This document shows, piece after piece, positions 506 to 8,502 of a stretch of DNA of 32,000 bases. A program made the translations under genes and the position numbers. The notes under the pieces are model-generated. The model was not told the origin of the DNA and did no database searches. It worked only from the letters and a program-made list of their open reading frames with translations. The stretch is taken from the NCBI RefSeq assembly GCF_000010625.1, contig NC_010296.1, positions 4,110,001 to 4,142,000 on the forward strand, given 5' to 3'. Each line of letters begins with the position of its first letter. The stretch's first letter is position 1. This DNA is from Microcystis aeruginosa NIES-843. GTDB taxonomy: Bacteria > Cyanobacteriota > Cyanobacteriia > Cyanobacteriales > Microcystaceae.

Positions 506-1370
506 ATAATTTTGCTATTCTTGAGATTTTATTAATTATAGCAGTTTCAAAGATAACTTGGCTCTTCTCGTTTCTGTATAGTCTTACCTCGTTGCCAGAG
601 TATCCCTTGTAAGGCTTTCCAGAGGTTCTAGCTCTTGTGTAACCGATCAGGGAAGGGAGGGAGATCCTCCCTTGTCTCGTACCAAGGTAGAACCTTGGCA
701 TCAGAGAAATATGAAGATTTTATTAAATTGTATTTGTAAGTACAACTTTGGATAGGAAAGTGTGTTCATTAACAATGCGCCAGTCTTTGGTGTTGGGTAG
801 TGCGGTGTCTTAACCCAACCGACAAAATAGCGATCGCCGTTAACCTGACAGACCAGACTGGAAGCTTGTGCTGATGATCTAGGATTATTTGCCGATTAAT
901 GACTCTTTTCGGAAATTAGAGGACAATACCGTGCCAGTAATTATGGATTTTAACAACTTTCCCCGACCTTTCTTTTTTATTCTCAAGCGATGTCAAAGAC
1001 CAGATTGAAACGTTAGTAGTTATGGCTCTTCGTTACCCTTTATGCTAAATCAACATACAAGATGCCAAGATAACATACTTATAACCCAAAAATTCCGAAA
1101 GTTTCTAAAGCCATAGCCTCTCCGTTTTATTAGTTTAAGTTTATTGTTGATTCCCTCGACCACCCCATTCGTTGTCCTTCGCTCGAAATAACTAATTATT
1201 TCTCCAAACCAGTTTCGGATTGTTTGACAACTCTTGGTAAAAACACTGGAGGATTTTGCCAACCATTCCGAGATGGATAGCATTCCCTCTGTCGGATTCT
1301 CTGAGGTTTCATAAATCTTTCTGAATTCTTCCTTTAATTCCTGCATCTTTTTCAAATTTGGGAATTTTTC

Positions 1371-1557
1371 GGCTCTTCGGTTTGTCTTATGCAACGTACA
1401 GGGTTATAAGGAATGAAACTCTTATAGAGAAAGACATGGCTGCGATTTTTGTTAATTGGTTTCGATCTAGAGCGAACTAATCAATTAAATCTCTTGCCAG
1501 ATAAGGATTCAGTCGATTTATGCCCCCATATCGAACCATACTAAGTAACGAAGAACC
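1371..1557. mobile_element. MITE family A (ISL3-end-derived), copy 1, 187 bp
   Basis: Begins GGCTCTTCGGTTTGTCTTATGCAA and ends ...AAGTAACGAAGAACC. Perfect 8-bp target duplication AATTTTTC at 1363-1370 and 1558-1565. Confidence 0.85.
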
Positions 1558-2196
1558 AATTTTTCTTTGATAGCTTCTAGTTTAATTTTTTGGGGTTCCG
1601 TTAAATCTTCTTCATTTTTTAACAGGCTATATTTACTTCGCTTTAAAACTTCTAGCTTTGCTTCTTTTTCCGCTTTCTGTTTTTTATTTTTCTGCGCTTC
1701 TACGGCTCTTTTTTCCGCTCTTCTCTGTTCGTCTAACTCTTGATTAATTTGTTTCATTACATGGAATCTATCGGCGACTACCTCGGCCGATGGCATCAAT
1801 TCTTTCACCAAATTTTTATAGGGCAACCAAAGGTCTATGCTCACTTCTTCAATTTGCTCTAACACCTCTTTTCCCCACCCAGTAAGCGTTTCCCTCAACT
1901 CTTCTTGTGTTCGCTTCTCTAGAATAGCTATTAGTTTTCCCGTATCTAAATTTACTAAAACCGCACAGTAATTTTTTTGTCCTTTGACTAGAGCGATTTC
2001 ATCAATTCCTAGCCTTTTTAATTTCGATAAATCTGGCTCTGTAATTTCTTCGGCGATGTCCTCTACCATTCTTTGAATCTCTTCTTCCGTTACGTTATTT
2101 CTTCGGCTAACATTTAAAATATCTCCTTCTTTTAATTGTTCGAGTATATTCTCGGCTAGTCTTTTCGTATAGGTTCGTTTCTTGGCGACAAAATCT

Positions 2197-2383
2197 GGCT
2201 CTTCGGTAATTGTTATGCAATGGACGGGGGTTATAAGGGATGGAACCCTTATATAGAAAGGCATTTAGCGATTTTTGTCAATTGTTTTTTATCTAGAGCG
2301 AACTAATCAATTAAGTCTCTTGCCAGATAAGGATTTAGTCGATTTATGCCCCCCTATCGAACCATACCAAGTAACGAAGAACC
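2197..2383. mobile_element. MITE family A, copy 2, 187 bp
   Basis: Begins GGCTCTTCGGTAATTGTTATGCAA, which is 24/26 identical to the right end of the host ISL3. Ends ...AAGTAACGAAGAACC. Perfect 8-bp duplication CAAAATCT at 2189-2196 and 2384-2391. Confidence 0.85.
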
Positions 2384-2846
2384 CAAAATCTAACTCTTCG
2401 CTAAAGGGTCTCTGACAATTACCGCACTTAAATTGACGACGATTAACCTGTAGGTACACTGGTTGTCCTGAGATTGGTAAATCTTTGACTAAATGTCGAT
2501 GATTTTGGTGGAGTTTATCGCTCTCTAACCCACAACGAGGACAGGTTGCTTTTTTATTTTTCGATTCGACTGGTCAAACTATACCGATATTTTCTAGGTG
2601 TCGATAGCCTTGAATACAGGTTCCTTCTAGGTTCAAAAATTTGTCAAGTATCATAAGTAAAATAATCTCGTTTTTGGCTATTATATCAAATCTTAACTCA
2701 ATTGTCTATCTTTTGGTATTAACCTGTTGATGCCTTAAGTCCTTCCCTATATGGATTTCAGCTACTTTTGAGCGTAGGCGCTCTCATCGAATTTTATTTT
2801 AAGTTAATTATTTGCATAACAATTTCCGAAGAGCCGTAAATATCAA

Positions 2847-3164
2847 GTGGAGTTATTGGGGTTAGATGTGTTTGACCCGATTACCATGAAAGTGGACTCA
2901 GAACCGGGTAAGAATGTCCCCGCTTGGTTTCTCGATACTAACTACAACGGCTTATGTTTCCACGTCAATCAGGCATTTTTTCCCCGTACCGGCGCTTGGG
3001 ATTCGATTAAAAAAGCTTTAAAGGGAACCTATGAGGAATCAGTCTGGGAACATCTAGCAGGGACAACCAGCGCACCTTTTGAAGTGGGAGAACATCGGCA
3101 AATTGCCGTTAAGGTGATTGATGACCGGGGGAATGAGTTATTAGTGCTTAAAAGTTTAAATTAG
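2847..3164 (+). pseudogene. 3' fragment (copy A) of a site-specific DNA methyltransferase (type III-like mod)
   Basis: The C-terminal block ...AWFLDTNYNGLCFHVNQAFFPRTGAWDSIKKALK...GEHRQIAVKVIDDRGNELLV is one I recognise as the tail of N6/N4 methylases that precede res helicases. There is no catalytic or N-terminal part. It abuts the ISL3 end, and the left flank of the IS does not continue the frame. Confidence 0.6.
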
Positions 3165-3189
3165 CCGAATTAAAAAAAGGAAAACTAAT

Positions 3190-3447
3190 ATGAATGCTGA
3201 CAAAAAATATGTGACAATTGAGCGATCGCATCAGTTGATTTTATCCGATTTACCCTTTCGAGCCTGTCAAAGAGTAGAAATTATTATTTTAGCAGAAGAT
3301 GGTCAGAAAACTAACCCTCAATTAGAGGAGTTACGGCAAAAAATTGATAGTGCAACCGAGCAAATTTTAGCGGGTAATGTAACCGATGGGGAATTAGTTT
3401 TTGAGCAGTTAAAAACAAGATTAAGAGAAGAATATGGCTTAAAATAA
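3190..3447 (+). CDS. Putative antitoxin (ParD-like by context)
   Basis: 85 aa. The segment LEELRQKIDSATEQILAGNVTDGELVFEQLKTRLRE resembles ParD-type antitoxins. Its stop overlaps the ATG of a ParE-like stub (TAATG). Confidence 0.5.
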   Translation: MNADKKYVTIERSHQLILSDLPFRACQRVEIIILAEDGQKTNPQLEELRQKIDSATEQILAGNVTDGELVFEQLKTRLREEYGLK

Positions 3448-3494
3448 TGGCAATTTATCAATTCTCCCAAGAGGCAATTAATGATCCAGGGTGA
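3447..3494 (+). pseudogene. ParE/RelE-family toxin remnant (15 codons)
   Basis: MAIYQFSQEAINDPG* matches the usual ParE N-terminus (M-x-Y-x-L/F-S/T-x-x-A-x-x-D-L) and then terminates. No continuation was found in any frame. Confidence 0.5.
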
Positions 3495-3574
3495 GCGCAT
3501 CTCAAACGCCATTGACAATTGACCAATTTTGTTATCCGTTTGCTGTGTGAGCATTTCAAGCGATACCAGTCAAT

Positions 3575-3664
3575 CAGAATAGTTACGAACTCGATCCATT
3601 TGGTCGATTGTTGCTCAACAATTGAGAAGGCAAATTCTACCCAAATATGCCCAAATTGTGGGTA
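3575..3664 (+). pseudogene. Possible TnpB C-terminal remnant
   Basis: Short frames read ..FGRLLLNN and EKANSTQICPNCG*. Compare the intact TnpB in this window (YGRLTIAVNPAYTSQECFNCG). The fragment ends next to MITE B copy 1. Confidence 0.3.
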
Positions 3665-3676
3665 GGCAACCTACAT

Positions 3677-3888
3677 AGGGTTTGCTGAAAAAGTTTTTCC
3701 TGGGGGCAGGGTGTGGGGTGTGGGGTGTGGGATGTGGGGTTTTACCAGTTTTGAGGTGGCCAATTACCTAATTTTCAGGGAAAAAGTGCCTAAATTTCCC
3801 CCCGATCACTCCCATATCCATTACTTTTTGATTGACAAAAGGTCTAAAAGTCTTACCCAACAAGGTTTTTAGATTTATTCAGCAAGCC
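3677..3888 (+). mobile_element. MITE family B (G4-bearing), copy 1, 212 bp
   Basis: Ends are AGGGTTTGCTGAA...TTCAGCAAGCC. 6-bp duplication CTACAT at 3671-3676 and 3889-3894. Internal G tract at 3702-3740. Confidence 0.8.
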
Positions 3889-3949
3889 CTACATAAAGTT
3901 CATTTTGTCAAGAATTTTTAAGATGCACTTACCCTGTGTTAATTTTCTG

Positions 3950-4244
3950 GTTTGACCCGATTACAATGAAAGTGGACTCAGAACCGGGTAAGAATGTCCC
4001 CGCTCGGTTTCTCTATACTAACTACAATGGCTTATGTTTCCACGTCAATCAGGCATTTTTTCCCCGTACCGGCGCTTGGGATTCGATTAAGAAAGCTTTA
4101 AAGGGAACCTATGAGGAGTCGGTCCAGAAACATTTAGCAGGGACAACCAGCGCACCTTTTGCAGTGAGAGAACATCGGCAAATTGCCGTTAAAGTGATTG
4201 ATGACCGGGGGAGTGAATTGCTAGTGGTTAAGCAATTAAAATGA
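3950..4244 (+). pseudogene. 3' fragment (copy B) of the same methyltransferase family
   Basis: About 89% aa identity to copy A over about 98 aa. It carries substitutions at positions conserved in copy A (AWFLDTNY becomes ARFLYTNY). No upstream methylase sequence is present. Confidence 0.6.
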
Positions 4245-4257
4245 GTTGGAGGTCGTT

Positions 4258-4961
4258 ATGGCAATTGAAATTAAATCTCTAGTTCCTAAATTTGGACCTG
4301 ATGGTAACTACCATGTAGGCTATATTGGATTTACCTACAGTGAAGGAAATAAGCTAAACGGCGCTTAACCTGCATGATCCAACAGCTATAACCCTTTTGG
4401 AGTCTATATCGGTGATCCGAAGTAAAAGCCGTTTAGCTTATCATCTCTGAAGGAATCGCCTATTTTACCCGTTGGCATCGAATGAGCGACATAAAGGTTT
4501 CTCATGCTTTAATTGTCACCGGAGACAATAAATGTGTTGAAGCTCATCTTGAAACCGGAGTTGCTGAAAAAGATTTGAGTGAATATTTTAATGATCCGCA
4601 CTGTCAAATCTTTTTCAGAAAACCCAAAGGATTAACTTCGGATATAGCCAAAAAAATTGTCGAAAAAGCCGAGGAGCAAAAAGGCTGTAAGTATGACCTT
4701 GATTTAATTGAACACATGGTAGAAGTCCACAGCATTGTAGGGTGGACAATTAATAAGCTAACCCGAGGTGGCTACGAAAACCGTATTACTCTGGCTCATG
4801 AAGGAGATGACAAGTGGATTTGCAGTGAATTAGCTGCTCATTGCTTAGATGAACAGCCAGAATACAAAGACAAGGGAATACTAAGCAAGCTAGATGCAAC
4901 AATAGATCCTCAAGAATTATTTGAAGATCAGACGATATTTGAGCCTTGGAAAAAGGCGTAA
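4258..4961 (+). pseudogene. Permuted papain-fold (NlpC/P60, YiiX/C92-like) hydrolase, interrupted by an 89-bp element
   Basis: ORF 4482..4961 has the His-then-Cys order (VSHALIV ... GCKYDLDL ... WICSELAAHCL). A 36-codon ORF at 4258-4368 has GGAGG 8 nt upstream. It joins the downstream frame in phase when 4351-4439 is removed, giving ...GYIGFTYSEGN|IISEGIAYFTRWHRMSDIKVSHALIV. Confidence 0.6.
4351..4439. mobile_element. 89-bp miniature inverted-repeat insertion
   Basis: Perfect 12-bp terminal inverted repeats, AAGCTAAACGGC and GCCGTTTAGCTT. This becomes 14 bp if the flanking AT is included. The element introduces TAA at 4366 and TAG at 4434. Confidence 0.6.
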
Positions 4962-4967
4962 TTTTCT

Positions 4968-5055
4968 GGACACCTCGAAAACTAAAGATGCTTATTGAGA
5001 ATAACCCGGTATATGATGGTTAGTTTTCGCAATAAGACAATTTATCGGGGTGTCC
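4968..5055. mobile_element. Possible 88-bp MITE (GGACACCTCGAAAA-type ends)
   Basis: Left end is GGACACCTCGAAAA. The reverse complement of the right end is GGACACCCCGATAA (12/14 match). It is flanked by TTCT on both sides. Related ends occur at 16062, 16372 and 16508. Confidence 0.4.
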
Positions 5056-5102
5056 TTCTTTTTTTCCTACTACTTCCCACTTAACATCAAAACCGTCAAG
5101 CC

Positions 5103-6542
5103 ATGAATCCTAGCGAGTTTCTCAGTCGTGAGATTATACGTCCTTTAATCACCCTTGCCATTCCGGGAGGAGTGGCGATCGCTCCTTATGTTTACTTATT
5201 ACATAGCAACGATACAGTTCGTGGTTTTTGGACAACCCATGAAGTAGCGATGATTTTCTTTCTGCTAGTCATTTCTTTAGCAGTTGGATTACTTTTAGAA
5301 GATATTGGCGCAGAAATCGAAAAATTCTATCGAGATCAGTTTGATCCGACAGGAACCACTTGGAATAATTATCTAAAAAAACCAGCTTACTCAGAATTAA
5401 AGGATTTAGAACCTCCCCCGACAGGTATTTATATTACTGAAACAGCTAAAGACTGTATTAACTCAATTGTCCTTCGGCTGAAGTTTGAGTTAGGAATGTT
5501 TATAGCGATACTTTTTGCTTTTCCTGGTCTAGTTTGGATATGGCATTTGAATTGCGATCCGATAAACTACGTTTGGTTAGTAGGTTTACCTTTATTATTA
5601 TCCTTGTGCGGATATCTCTTATATGAAGCTCTGAATAGCGTTGAATTACTTCATGAAACCCGAAAAGCTATTTTAAATGATAAGAGAAACTCTGGGATAA
5701 TAAATGTCGGAGCAATTTTCAAAGCAGCAATTTTCGGAGCAATTTTCGGGACAATTTTAGGAGCAATTTTAGGAGCAGGTATCGAAGGAATTCCCGTAGT
5801 ACTTCCCAGAATATTTAGCTCTATTAGCTTTAGCCAATTCGGTAGCTGGTTACAAACAGGAGCAGTCTTAGTATTTCTTTTGGGAACAACTAATGGAGCA
5901 TTGTTTGGAGCATTGTTTGGACTATTGTTTGGATTGAGTGATCCAACATGGCAGCCAGTTCTTGGACAACTTTTTGGAGCAGTTTTTGGACTACTTTTTG
6001 GAGCAGTTTTTGGAGCAGTTTTTGGACTACTTTTTGGAGCAGTTTTTGGATTATTTTTAGGACTCGGTTCTAGGGGATTAATCAGTGCGGTGTTCGGAGC
6101 ATTTTTTGGGGCATTTCTTGGAGCAGTTCTTGGATTATGTTTCAGTAACAACTCAGTAAATAAACCTATTTATGTAGTTATTTTATGCTTGATTTGGTTT
6201 AGTGTTTTAATATTTGTTGCTTCAGCATTTTTAGATACAAGACTATGTATTATAAATCCAGCAAATAATACTACAAAGTTTTTCGCAAATCACCCCATTA
6301 TTTTTCAAGGGAAAGCCTATGGACATATTGAGAAAATAAAAGCAAAAGTATCACAAAATGGAATAAATTTCCCTGAAAAAGAGAAGGTTGCCTTTCCCAG
6401 CCAAAATAAATGGTCATTTGACGAAACCTTGAGCAATACCAACAACTCTGAAATTCCCTACGATATTACTATAGATGGGTTAGATAAGCAGGATAATTTG
6501 ATTGCAGAAGGCAAAGTAAGAGTAATTATTGTAGATCCTTAA
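5103..6542 (+). CDS. Multi-pass membrane protein with extended glycine-zipper (GxxxG) arrays; family unknown
   Basis: 479 aa with hydrophobic helices in the first 180 aa. Four blocks of G/A-xxx-G tetrads follow: GAIFGTILGAILGAG, GALFGALFGLLFG, GQLFGAVFGLLFGAVFGAVFGLLFGAVFGLFLGLG and AVFGAFFGAFLGAVLG. Then comes one more TM helix and a polar tail of about 100 aa. Confidence 0.75.
   Translation: MNPSEFLSREIIRPLITLAIPGGVAIAPYVYLLHSNDTVRGFWTTHEVAMIFFLLVISLAVGLLLEDIGAEIEKFYRDQFDPTGTTWNNYLKKPAYSELKDLEPPPTGIYITETAKDCINSIVLRLKFELGMFIAILFAFPGLVWIWHLNCDPINYVWLVGLPLLLSLCGYLLYEALNSVELLHETRKAILNDKRNSGIINVGAIFKAAIFGAIFGTILGAILGAGIEGIPVVLPRIFSSISFSQFGSWLQTGAVLVFLLGTTNGALFGALFGLLFGLSDPTWQPVLGQLFGAVFGLLFGAVFGAVFGLLFGAVFGLFLGLGSRGLISAVFGAFFGAFLGAVLGLCFSNNSVNKPIYVVILCLIWFSVLIFVASAFLDTRLCIINPANNTTKFFANHPIIFQGKAYGHIEKIKAKVSQNGINFPEKEKVAFPSQNKWSFDETLSNTNNSEIPYDITIDGLDKQDNLIAEGKVRVIIVDP
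5709..6140 (+). repeat. 12-nt-periodic coding tandem repeats, including a perfect 36-bp x2 duplication
   Basis: GGAGCAGTTTTTGGACTACTTTTTGGAGCAGTTTTT occurs at 5976-6011 and again at 6012-6047. Related 12-mers are GGAGCAATTTTC/A and GGAGCATTGTTT. Confidence 0.9.
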
Positions 6543-6545
6543 AAT

Positions 6546-6641
6546 ATGTCCTACGAAGTAAACAAACCCATCCTCAACTCACCTTTTGATGAACCCTTGA
6601 TGAAGTTAAATCAGCCGTTTATCGAGCTTGCTTATACTTAG
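6546..6641 (+). pseudogene. 5' stub of a type III-like res gene
   Basis: MSYEVNKPILNSPFDEP (6546-6596) parallels the start of the res pseudogene at 7414 (MSYEVNEPILNSPFDEP), with about 84% nt identity. It then diverges and stops. Confidence 0.65.
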
Positions 6642-6650
6642 AATAATTCT

Positions 6651-7007
6651 ATGTCAGCCAAAGATATTTTTCATCAATCCGTGTGTATTGCCCTCGAAAA
6701 AGATGGCTGGAATATCACTCATGATCCCCTTTATCTTAAAGTCAATGACGTAGAATTTTACATCGACTTAGGTGCGGAAAGATTAATTGCCGCCGAAAAG
6801 GCAGGTCAAAAAATCGCCATAGAGATTAAATCTTTTTTAGGGACATCTGAAGTCACCGAATTTCATCTCGCATTAGGACAAATCCTCAATTATCGGTTAG
6901 CATTAAAACAGGAAGAACCCGAAAGGATTCTTTATCTAGCCATTCCTCAAGATACCTATGAAGACTTCTTCTCTCGTCAATTTATTCAAGACGCTGTAGC
7001 AGAATAG
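6651..7007 (+). CDS. xisH: XisH-family protein, ended by an in-frame TAG; the frame continues to 7067
   Basis: MSAKDIFHQSVCIALEKDGWNITHDPL...IAIEIKSF... is typical of XisH. After TAG (7005-7007) the same frame reads KIKLLIFNSLKQEVVLWKE*, which resembles XisH C-termini and overlaps the xisI start. Confidence 0.8.
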   Translation: MSAKDIFHQSVCIALEKDGWNITHDPLYLKVNDVEFYIDLGAERLIAAEKAGQKIAIEIKSFLGTSEVTEFHLALGQILNYRLALKQEEPERILYLAIPQDTYEDFFSRQFIQDAVAE

Positions 7008-7054
7008 AAAATTAAACTTTTAATCTTTAATTCTCTCAAACAAGAGGTGGTATT

Positions 7055-7384
7055 ATGGAAAGAATAAACTACTCTCAACTGATTCAAGACATTCTCACCC
7101 AACATTCAGTTAATGACAGCAAAAATGACAGAGAAACTCAACTTATTTTTGACACAAAACGCCATCATTATCAAGTCTTAAATATTGGGTGGAAAGAGCA
7201 AAAGCGAATCTATGGTGTGATTATTCATCTTGACATAAAAGATGACAAAATCTGGATTCAAAGAGATGGAACAGAAATCGGCATTGCCAATCAATTAATC
7301 GCTGCTGGTGTTCCTAAACAAGATATAGTCTTAGGTTTTCAGGCTCCCTATAAACGCAGTTTAACCGAGTTTGCCTTGAGTTAA
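7055..7384 (+). CDS. xisI: XisI-family protein
   Basis: 109 aa. ...YQVLNIGWKEQKRIYGVIIHLDIKDDKIWIQRDGTEIGIANQLIAAGVPKQDIVLGF is the recognisable XisI pattern, and the gene lies immediately downstream of xisH. Confidence 0.8.
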   Translation: MERINYSQLIQDILTQHSVNDSKNDRETQLIFDTKRHHYQVLNIGWKEQKRIYGVIIHLDIKDDKIWIQRDGTEIGIANQLIAAGVPKQDIVLGFQAPYKRSLTEFALS

Positions 7385-7413: not shown

Positions 7414-8502
7414 ATGTCCTACGAAGTCAACGAACCTATCCTTAATTCCCCCTTTGATGAACCCTCACAATACTGGTTCATCCGAGAAGGTTATGAACCG
7501 GAATTAAAAGAAGGGAGAAGACCAGCTATCGTTTACCCACCCCGGGAAGGTAATACCGAATGGGAATTAGGACAAGTTCTCAAACTTTCATCCCCCGATG
7601 AATTTTTCCCAGGTTATGAAATGACCCTAGTTAACCGCATCAGGAAAGAAGTTAAAGAATGGAGAAGACAACAGTATCCCGGGGTCAGCAGTACCACCTT
7701 AGAACTATTAGAATACTGGAGCCGAGAAGGAAGAGAACATCGCCTATTTTTTGCTCAAAAAGAAGCAGTAGAAACCATCATTTTCCTAATTGAATCTCGC
7801 ACCGACTTTCGCCAAGGGATTCATATTCCCCAAGATACCCCCATTGACAGCACCCTGAAAGCTTTCATCCGCTACGCCTGTAAGATGGCAACCGGAAGCG
7901 TCAAAATAACAGTGATGGGGATGTTAGCAGCATGGTCTATCCTCAACAAAGTAGCAGATCGCAGTAACGCTAAATTCTCCGATATTGTCCTGATTATCTG
8001 TCCCAATATCACCATTAAAAGTAGATTACAGGAACTCAACCCCGACAACGGCGAAGCTTCTTTGTATCGCACCCGTGACCTCGTACCTTCTCACCTGATG
8101 GACAAACTGAGACGGGGTAAAGTCTTAGTGACAAATTGGCATATTTTTGAAAAGCGAGCGCCTGCCACGTGGTGGCTGATACCGATCAATGGGAACAGGC
8201 AGCCGCCTATATTATTGACAATCATCCCGCCACTGCAGCCTTTGTTAAAAATGAACGCTTAGGGTTTACTATTCCCAGACTTTATTATCCGTCTGAAGAC
8301 AGCTAAATCTAACTATTTAATTTTAGAAACTAAAGGATGGGACGAACTGAGGGAAGTGAAGGAAGCAGCGGCTAAACCCTGGTGTAATGCCATTAATACC
8401 GACGGCAAACACGGTCATTGGCAATACTTTTTAACTGGATTGAGCAAAGTTAAAGAAGGAATTGATCAAGCAATGAGAGAAATCGAAGCATTAACCAACT
8501 AA
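7414..8502 (+). pseudogene. Type III-like restriction enzyme res subunit (helicase/endonuclease), with large internal deletion and frameshifts
   Basis: The N-terminal 250 aa are in one frame with a corrupted motif I (KMATGSVKITVMG, where GSGKT is expected). From about 8172 a second frame reads VADTDQWEQAAAYIIDNHPATAAFVKNERLGFTIP. From 8275 a third frame reads PDFIIRLKTAKSNYLILETKGWDE...EALTN*, which contains a PD-ExK nuclease motif. The total is about 360 codons, against roughly 900-1000 expected. Confidence 0.75.

Follow-up and report, generated by a model that had tools for sequence, protein, structure and literature searches.

The window analysed here is a stretch of 32,000 nucleotides from Microcystis aeruginosa NIES-843 (contig NC_010296.1, positions 4,110,001 to 4,142,000 of the forward strand), and the subject of this report is a pair of genes at positions 4258-6545 of it: a broken gene for a papain-fold enzyme (gene 1) and an intact gene for a membrane protein (gene 2, 5103-6542), which lie between remnants of the methyltransferase gene (mod) and the nuclease gene (res) of a restriction-modification (R-M) operon. 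The original order on the + strand was mod, 13 nt, gene 1, 141 nt, gene 2, 3 nt, res. In the window, the mod remnant next to the pair (remnant B) ends with a stop codon at 4242-4244, followed by GGAGG at 4248-4252 and the ATG of gene 1 at 4258, and the stop codon of gene 2 at 6540-6542 is followed by an ATG at 6546 that opens a 17-codon copy of the res N-terminus. The stop/ATG junction of gene 2 and res, TAAAATATG, is identical in the window and in the intact operon of a related locus, L191, and the orphan 17-codon copy marks the original gene 2-res junction. An earlier sequence-only reading of this region, which had placed the pair in a mod-res junction at these same distances, proved accurate nearly to the single base. 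The features of the locus are collected in Table 1.

By sequence comparison, the flanks are the non-working remnants of a type III-like mod/res operon with a ResIII helicase nuclease of the BPTD_3080 family. The three frames of the res remnant correspond, in order, to positions 2-250, 856-893 and 931-969 of the 970 positions of NCBIfam model NF046055, and tblastn with intact relatives of 1037 and 1040 aa indicated that ~250 N-terminal and 110 C-terminal codons are left while ~600-660 internal codons (model positions ~250-856) are gone. The remnant scored 301 bits against the model's cut-off of 800, no full-length nuclease of 970-1040 aa with a methyltransferase of ~900 aa was found, and a Pfam scan gave no match for the mod and res flanks. 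An intact res relative, 89% identical over the N-terminus, lies on a Planktothrix agardhii plasmid beside a 903-aa site-specific DNA methyltransferase, and this methyltransferase was the tblastn query for the mod remnants. The two mod copies, ~93% identical to each other over ~290 nt, represent the last ~100 residues of the 900-983-aa DNA methyltransferases that adjoin BPTD_3080 nucleases, and the counterparts from Mycobacterium, Shinella and Thermus match them as well. The identification of the flanks as mod and res in the sequence-only reading is thus borne out by both the NF046055 pieces and the tblastn matches to BPTD_3080-linked methyltransferases. The same internal deletion of res was present in every Microcystis copy retrieved, indicating that the R-M system died before those strains diverged.

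Several other features of the remnants were noted. The duplicated-mod arrangement around 2838-4244 varies in other Microcystis contigs (L001, L002, L006, L007), and the window and locus L111 share an extra frameshift in the C-terminal res piece when compared to L001 and L002. The two 51-nt copies of the res start at 6546-6596 and 7414-7464 flank the xisH/xisI genes and, being 88% identical, have diverged too far to be a recent target-site duplication; the xisH/xisI cassette may have arrived through recombination with another res allele.

Table 1 Features of the locus in the window (positions counted from its first nucleotide)
Feature	Position	Strand	Description
Mod remnant A	2838..3164 (ORF 2847-3164)	+	Last ~108 codons of a BPTD_3080-associated DNA methyltransferase; tblastn residues 796-903 at 81%
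Mod remnant B	3936..4244	+	Second methyltransferase 3' end; residues 807-903 at 74%
Gene 1, 5' part	4258..4349	+	First 30 codons and 2 nt; no difference from the intact 204-aa alleles L001 and L014
MITE-like insert in gene 1	4350..4438	.	89 bp, TA flanks, 19-nt imperfect terminal inverted repeats
Gene 1, 3' part	4439..4961	+	Carries His53, Cys63, Glu65 and Cys159
Spacer between gene 1 and gene 2	4962..5102	+	141 nt; missing from L191
Gene 2, N-domain	5103..5690	+	aa 1-196, predicted four-helix membrane domain
Gene 2, variable middle	5691..6149	+	Four blocks, 20 [GAS]xxxG tetrads
Gene 2, 3' part	6150..6542	+	Predicted final transmembrane helix (~aa 355-382), polar C-domain aa 383-479, stop
Orphan res start copy	6546..6596	+	First 17 codons; 16/17 aa and 45/51 nt identical to the res start at 7414-7464
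xisH	6651-7007	+	Pfam XisH, 2.7e-52; part of cassette 6651..7384 in the res 5' end
xisI	7055-7384	+	Pfam XisI, 3.9e-44; part of cassette 6651..7384 in the res 5' end
Res remnant	7414..8502	+	Three frames: 7414-8262, 8169-8306, 8356-8502; NCBIfam NF046055

Gene 2 and its N-terminal domain

Gene 2 is an intact open reading frame (ORF) of 479 aa whose product is predicted, by hydropathy and by an AlphaFold2 (AF2) model, to begin with four membrane helices. The model of this N-terminal domain (N-domain) consists of four helices of 30-40 residues, with a mean predicted local distance difference test score (pLDDT) of 93.5. It is followed by glycine-zipper blocks that run in register at aa 208-224, 261-277, 288-320 and 328-344 and are encoded by 12-nt and 36-nt tandem DNA repeats, and beyond a predicted transmembrane (TM) helix at ~355-382 the protein ends in a polar tail of 97 aa (C-domain). 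This is the architecture given in the sequence-only reading (four TM helices, 20 tetrads in four blocks, a further TM helix and a polar tail of ~97 aa), and its statement that gene 2 belongs to no named family also held, as nothing rose above cut-off in Pfam, NCBIfam, PADLOC or PHROGs. The Pfam glycine-zipper models PF13441, PF13488 and PF13436 were matched below their thresholds (22.1 vs 28.9, 20.4 vs 25 and 18.9 vs 27 bits). The N-domain had no sequence match in the PDB and no significant fold match there (generic long-helix matches at E > 0.6), and the C-domain had no Pfam, PHROG or PDB sequence match; by eye, the C-domain may be beta-rich or immunoglobulin-like. No transposase or integrase domain was found in gene 1 or gene 2 with Pfam and NCBIfam.

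Five close homologues of gene 2 were found in a set of 5.8 billion proteins. The N-terminal ~190 aa are common to all five and the C-terminal ~100 aa to most, with the C-domain kept in P0002, P0004 and L111, while the middle of the protein in homologues and alleles is a GxxxG zipper, a series of NATLT pentapeptide-like repeats, charged ENGQIEEAK repeats or almost nothing. Within Microcystis, the alleles of 447 aa (L014 1429-2772), 475 aa (L001 5077-6504), 479 aa (the window) and 546 aa (L111 1654-3294) are all in frame and differ chiefly in the repeat region, which holds the GxxxG zipper, the NATLT repeats or both. Since the zipper varies between alleles and is missing from P0002, it is not the defining feature of gene 2. 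The L001, L014 and L111 alleles are mosaics that nearly match the window allele over the first ~130 residues before an abrupt divergence, a pattern that, between the window and L111, suggests recombination. Against more distant homologues, the ratio of nonsynonymous to synonymous substitution rates (dN/dS) was ~0.2 for gene 1 and 0.3-0.5 for the conserved domains of gene 2, and on these comparisons both genes look like maintained coding sequences.

The N-domain was found well beyond Microcystis. A HMMER scan with aa 1-197 returned 316 representatives of clusters made at 50% identity at E ≤ 1e-3 (100 of them at E ≤ 1e-10), and most members are free-standing proteins of ~185-200 aa that span the whole domain. 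Conserved motifs include FRP..TL..PG, LEDxGxxIE, W..YL, RYL..IL.RLKFEL and E..S....L...R, together with E175 and R187, and no Pfam, PADLOC or PHROG model covers the family. The conserved charges sit on a single side, at the points where the helices emerge from their hydrophobic segments. That side would be cytoplasmic under the positive-inside rule, which would put the C-domain in the periplasm. The N-domain had no match in 50,697 phage records (tblastn) and occurred, by a narrow alignment, on 1 of 2.9 million viral contigs, and tblastn against plasmids found no homologues. This near-absence from viruses argues against a holin.

The neighbourhoods of free-standing N-domain members were suggestive of a defence context. 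A type I R-M system and an HD-domain protein adjoin the member in L096, and a TIR_2 protein and integrases adjoin another (L097, L098). A PycTM protein is found near the member in L095, the one in L196 immediately precedes a Mrr_cat_2-ResIII helicase, a further member has caspase-like C14, HNH and SNase genes around it, and the one in L195 belongs to a DnaB/HTH mobile region.

Gene 1, a disrupted enzyme gene

In this strain gene 1 is a pseudogene through an 89-bp insert resembling a miniature inverted-repeat transposable element (MITE). The ORF pieces at 4258-4368 and 4482-4961 join as one 204-aa frame once the 89 bp at 4350-4438 are removed; the inverted repeat arms occupy 4349-4367 and 4423-4441, and a stop codon borne by the insert lies at 4366-4368. 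The window allele differs from the intact Microcystis alleles in L001 and L014 only by this insertion, and their alignment gave exactly the 89 bp that the sequence-only reading had taken out. The insert occurs once in the window. A TA duplication is typical of IS630/Tc1-type elements. Excision of 107 bp at the direct repeat TGAAGGAA was also considered and is excluded, as the intact alleles show 89 bp and TGAAGGAA is native coding sequence.

The His-before-Cys order claimed for the encoded enzyme is supported by 46 homologues, in which His53 and Cys159 (204-aa numbering; motifs VSHALIV and WICSEL) are invariant. Cys63 is also invariant and Glu65, 12 residues after His53, nearly so. An AF2 model of gene 1 (pLDDT 86.5) was built without 6 residues (NIISEG) and has low confidence at residues 30-36, which leaves the fold result unaffected. 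Its top Foldseek match in BFVD was a phage protein labelled 'Permuted papain-like amidase YaeF/YiiX C92' (E = 3.7e-7, TM-scores 0.57/0.69), followed by poxvirus OPG091-like and giant-virus C92 proteins; in the PDB the best matches were PLAAT3/HRASLS3, of the permuted LRAT family (weak, E about 0.06), and then canonical NlpC/P60 peptidases, also weak, and a profile search of the PDB gave a marginal match to 3KW0. Gene 1 itself stayed below the cut-offs of PF05708 (19 bits against 27, E = 0.0015) and of NCBIfam YaeF (27 bits against 279), and several of its homologues (53-65% identity) bear a precomputed PF05708 (Peptidase_C92) match. On these sequence and structure comparisons, the permuted YaeF/YiiX (C92)-like papain-fold assignment, which agrees with the permuted NlpC/P60 call of the sequence-only reading, is sound.

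Past work on permuted NlpC/P60 enzymes points to acyl-lipid bonds rather than peptides as their target (PMC3142127; PMC12994826; PMC7387801). YiiX was crystallised with a fatty acid (PMC3142127), and a hydrophobic lipid-binding S1 pocket or lipid-directed activity is known for YiiX and BcPPNE (PMC3142127) and for Tox-Act1 (PMC12994826); LnsA works in lipoprotein N-acylation alongside LnsB, a membrane protein (PMC7387801); and Tox-Act1 and TseH are phospholipase toxins, the former with a membrane-associated immunity protein (PMC12994826). By analogy with these enzymes, the gene 1 product is more likely to be lipid-directed than a peptidase, and the word 'hydrolase' should then be read as lipid acyl hydrolase or acyltransferase. 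As gene 1 carries no signal peptide, the protein is probably cytoplasmic.

Homologues of gene 1 number more than 346, are 200-220 aa long and occur in cyanobacteria, Verrucomicrobia, Zetaproteobacteria, Lentisphaerae, Planctomycetes and others. They lie mainly in ordinary chromosomal contexts, and in 80 genomes their neighbours were conserved only within genera (Microcoleus, Microcystis); ORF calling in this neighbour search missed gene 1 itself in 17 loci. Members of the family are present on five IMG/VR contigs (L101-L105), and tblastn of 50,697 phage records gave no match.

Three further observations concern the family. In Microcoleus (L071, L078-L089) the homologue belongs to a conserved gene cluster that encodes small proteins of 113-138 aa without annotation, along with what appear by eye to be a SLOG/DprA-like protein and a 490-aa protein with peptidoglycan-binding and SH3-like regions. 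Microcystis reference genomes (L044, L052, L055, L059, L060) hold a second C92-like member, 49% identical to gene 1, in a different and ordinary-looking neighbourhood beside a cysteine-synthase-like gene. Gene 1 and its homologues also match phrog_1128 (E = 2e-18 to 2e-22) at profile positions ~10-175 of 381, and the label of that profile, 'enoyl-CoA hydratase/carnithine racemase-like', probably comes from its other half.

The mod-res junction in related operons

The occupancy of the mod-res junction was surveyed in 85 loci with BPTD_3080 res N-termini (L106-L190; 5 plasmid and 80 metagenome), and for 75 of them the positions of the mod stop and of the res start were both determined. The two genes were adjacent, defined as a gap of ≤ 100 nt, in 27 of the 75, and an insert of 0.5-4 kb occupied the junction in the other 48. 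An ABC ATPase of ~550 aa (AAA_21/AAA_15), with NsnB, AriA, GajA and PtuA as best PADLOC matches, was present in 25 loci, and family scans also identified HEC-01A (E = 1e-177) with DUF4276, PDC-S11 (3e-37), vWA-TIR_2 and DUF3800. By these family assignments, the identifiable cargo of the BPTD_3080 junction is mostly of defence type, and such a hotspot in related operons makes a defence role for gene 2 a reasonable hypothesis.

The cargo also changes between related operons. Cyanobacterial operons whose res proteins are 74-96% identical carry wholly different cargo, and at the upper end, L114 and L191 encode 96% identical res proteins and hold, respectively, a 183-aa single-TM protein with a beta-rich tail (L114 8444-8995) and a 321-aa homologue of gene 2 (L191 130-1095), which is direct evidence of recent cargo swapping.

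Other junction ORFs were read by eye as a PIN-like protein, a nucleotidyltransferase/HEPN-like pair, toxin-antitoxin pairs, a REP-associated tyrosine transposase (L180), and several small TM proteins and unknowns. Whether the operons with an ABC ATPase might be Hma systems was considered and rejected: the L106 res matches only REase_III, and weakly, and Hma is not among the PADLOC matches listed for the ATPase. On scans of res and the ATPase only, these operons were treated as not Hma.

Upstream of the pair in the window, on the - strand (18-505), a YoeB toxin gene (Pfam E = 5e-31) stands next to one for a YefM-like antitoxin, and a RelN-like antitoxin ORF was identified by family scan at 3190-3447, between the two mod remnants; together with xisH and xisI, these scans substantiate the toxin-antitoxin modules and xisHI genes that the sequence-only reading had described around the pair. 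By eye, fragmented ORFs at 1050-2459 (- strand) resemble an ISL3-family transposase, and an ORF at 3519-3665, also between the mod remnants, resembles a TnpB C-terminal fragment. Downstream, one ORF corresponds to the ycf4 and peptidyl-prolyl isomerase genes that were called at this position in L001, a near-identical locus, and other ORFs there look, on sequence inspection, like a ketoacyl synthase and a DnaG primase; neighbours of this kind indicate that the wreck of the operon is chromosomal. The GC content is 0.39 in gene 1 and 0.365 in gene 2, compared to 0.416 in the window, and a promoter and terminator scan of 3800-6700 gave signals no better than those of shuffled sequence, the spacer at 4962-5102 included.

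Interpretation and comparison with known systems

Very probably, a BPTD_3080 R-M operon that has since decayed had taken up gene 1 and gene 2 as cargo, each embedded independently of the other. More tentatively, at somewhat under an even chance, we propose that the gene 2 product is an accessory to phage defence that acts at the membrane, by entry exclusion or by depolarisation of the abortive-infection (Abi) type, and the account that joins the decayed operon, the two cargo genes and this role for gene 2 stands at about an even chance as a whole. Under this account, gene 2 would be the functional cargo and encode a protein of the cytoplasmic membrane, whose N-domain would carry its conserved acidic and basic residues as a ring where membrane and cytoplasm meet, and whose hypervariable repeat segment (here the GxxxG zipper) and final TM helix would put the small conserved C-domain in the periplasm. 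The protein might block phage entry in the manner of superinfection exclusion, or might depolarise or permeabilise the membrane on infection, and in either case would back up the R-M system with which it would have shared a transcript. Gene 1 would encode a cytoplasmic permuted NlpC/P60 Cys-His enzyme, most likely a lipid acyl hydrolase or acyltransferase, and would be a separable passenger rather than an obligate partner. The claim of the sequence-only reading that the pair is a candidate defence module therefore fares unevenly: the junction, as a hotspot for defence-type cargo, speaks for the defence part, and the idea of a partner hydrolase is not supported.

The main rival to independent embedding is that proposal itself, in which gene 1 and gene 2 form one toxin or Abi module, a membrane effector with an activating or assisting hydrolase. 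The genes are adjacent and on the same strand, every gene 2 locus sampled within Microcystis also has gene 1 (L001-L008, L014, L111), and LnsA/LnsB offers a precedent of a permuted NlpC/P60 enzyme with a polytopic membrane partner (PMC7387801). The pairing, however, is limited to Microcystis: gene 2, mod and res were found in 0 of the 80 genome loci with gene 1 homologues (tblastn and profile search), and no gene 1 homologue was found in the 8 loci of free-standing N-domain members. In L191-L194, moreover, the mod 3' end is followed by 18 nt, a 321-aa gene 2 homologue with an N-domain 69-71% identical, the same C-domain and no zipper, 3 nt, and an intact 1040-aa res, and gene 1 is absent. The presence of the gene 2 homologue alone in this intact slot, with the lack of co-occurrence elsewhere, indicates that gene 2 is the primary occupant and gene 1 a separable addition. 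The 141-nt spacer between the genes, compared to 3-18 nt at the other junctions, and the loss of gene 1 in a strain that keeps gene 2 intact also tell against a joint module, which we regard as improbable. What stood of the proposal was the adjacency and the place in the junction; co-occurrence, which it had expected in other genomes, was seen in Microcystis only, so that the survey it called for went largely against it. The same findings bear on the idea of a toxin-immunity pair, with gene 1 as a phospholipase-type toxin and gene 2 as its membrane-embedded immunity protein. The Tox-Act1/TseH phospholipase toxins, with the membrane-associated immunity protein of Tox-Act1 (PMC12994826), and the ring of toxin-antitoxin modules around the region favour such a pair, but the supposed immunity gene is found in loci that lack the supposed toxin, no secretion or delivery domain is present in gene 1, and members of the gene 1 family are widely distributed as lone chromosomal genes with no conserved neighbour, which is unexpected for a toxin that depends on immunity. 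Gene 2, at 479 aa and with a conserved, putatively periplasmic domain, is also far larger than typical immunity proteins, and a pair of this kind is very improbable.

Independent cargo need not be defensive, and the genes could be passengers of envelope or lipid physiology that landed in an insertion-tolerant junction. The junction also takes selfish or neutral DNA (the toxin-antitoxin-like pairs, the REP-transposase-like ORF seen by eye in L180, and xisHI here), gene 1 homologues are mostly in ordinary contexts, and the N-domain homologue in L099 stands among metabolic genes. On the other side, most identifiable cargo of the slot is of defence type, 5-6 of ~8 N-domain neighbourhoods are defence or mobile, and the gene 2 stop lies 3 nt from the res ATG in an intact operon, suggesting co-expression with the nuclease; a purely passenger status is accordingly thought unlikely. 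That the whole locus, gene 2 included, is a decaying relic without current function would fit the fragmentary mod and res, the interrupted gene 1 and the many insertions, but gene 2 is intact in all four alleles seen despite its slippage-prone repeats, gene 1 is intact in other Microcystis strains, and dN/dS is below 1 against distant homologues, so that we see little chance of this. Descent from a phage lysis cassette, with gene 1 endolysin-like and gene 2 holin-like, is largely refuted and scarcely credible. NlpC/P60 enzymes are common as endolysins, the N-domain homologue in L100 directly follows a Peptidase_M15_4 gene, and gene 1 matches phrog_1128 and occurs on viral contigs; against this, the neighbours in L100 have no PHROG matches, the N-domain has no PHROG and is nearly absent from viral sequences, gene 1 is absent from isolated phage genomes by tblastn, and permuted NlpC/P60 enzymes are lipid-directed, not muralytic (PMC3142127, PMC12994826).

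Several points weigh against the preferred account of gene 2. Neither protein of the window had a match in PADLOC-DB v2 at E ≤ 10, and 61 sequences of the N-domain family gave only isolated chance-level matches there. Among the N-domain neighbourhoods, the one in L099 is plainly metabolic and the one in L100, an operon of unknowns, is uninformative, and the total of ~8 is too few for an enrichment statistic. The zipper, missing from homologue P0002, is dispensable there, and may have arisen through repeat slippage without serving in a pore. We infer the periplasmic position of the C-domain from hydropathy and charge alone. In all Microcystis copies seen, the host R-M system is defunct, which ends any joint role with it, and the cargo may be in decay as well; at ~0.008 the synonymous divergence (dS) between Microcystis strains is too low to judge selection since the system died.

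A broader joint reading, which we think doubtful, is that the N-domain defines a widespread, undescribed four-helix anti-phage or exclusion family and that the BPTD_3080 junction is a fifth major embedding hotspot. In the same reading, members of the family would either stand alone within defence islands or, in cyanobacteria, be joined to a hypervariable repeat linker plus a periplasmic domain and reside in restriction operons. Should gene 2 and its relatives of ~190 aa prove protective against phage, they would be a new family of membrane-acting effectors of prokaryotic immunity, present in bloom-forming Microcystis, whose phage interactions matter ecologically. If the genes are only passengers, the locus is an ordinary decaying defence island. 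The junction itself merits attention, as it is occupied in about two thirds of cases and its cargo turns over between near-identical systems; much of this cargo is recognisable defence machinery and the rest unknowns, and the slot could be mined for new defence genes. We found no description in the literature of the BPTD_3080 mod-res junction as a cargo hotspot, and no paper that mentions the BPTD_3080 family. The locus involves an unannotated protein family, in a kind of embedding within defence systems that was already known.

Compared to known glycine-zipper proteins (Gly-zipper_YMGG, _Omp and _OmpA; microcin E492-type), gene 2 is alike in its long in-register GxxxG runs within hydrophobic segments and in its weak matches to three Pfam zipper models and to the YiiaD-like YiaD and E492 NCBIfam models. 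It differs in that the zipper is a repeat-encoded, allele-variable insert between two conserved domains, with matches below cut-offs. Our literature search turned up a bacteriocin-like zipper protein beside CoCoNuT systems, but no earlier example of a defence effector with a glycine zipper. Gene 1 shares the His-before-Cys order and, as read from the alignment, a polar residue 12 positions after the His (here Glu65) with YaeF/YiiX C92, LRAT/PLAAT, Tox-Act1/TseH and LnsA enzymes, and its predicted fold matches viral C92 proteins and PLAAT3. It stands apart as a distinct subfamily of ~205 aa with an N-terminal NYxxGYIGFTY extension and a second invariant cysteine, Cys63, and falls below the curated cut-offs. 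As for the BPTD_3080 R-M systems, the fragments in the window keep the order of intact systems carried by plasmids of Planktothrix, Mycobacterium, Shinella and Thermus, except that only the last ~100 mod codons are kept, in two copies, and the res 5' end is split by xisHI.

The closest parallel for the arrangement as a whole is the embedding of defence genes within multi-gene defence systems, of which prrC within the EcoprrI type I R-M locus is the classical example. Payne et al. took such 'guilt by embedding' as their guide in Hma, BREX, DISARM and type I R-M loci and identified new defence systems by it; activity was seen for 7 of 9 candidates, and co-orientation for 96.7% (bioRxiv 10.1101/2024.01.29.577857). 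The locus described here departs from those candidates in that its host is a BPTD_3080 mod/res operon, outside the four host types of that study, that its cargo has no PADLOC match, and that the host is dead in this strain. It resembles them in that the two genes are nested between restriction genes, on the + strand like these and with junctions of 13 nt and 3 nt, and in that the same slot is empty or filled with unrelated cargo in close relatives and, in other BPTD_3080 operons, houses the known embedded candidates HEC-01, PDC-S11 and ABC ATPases.

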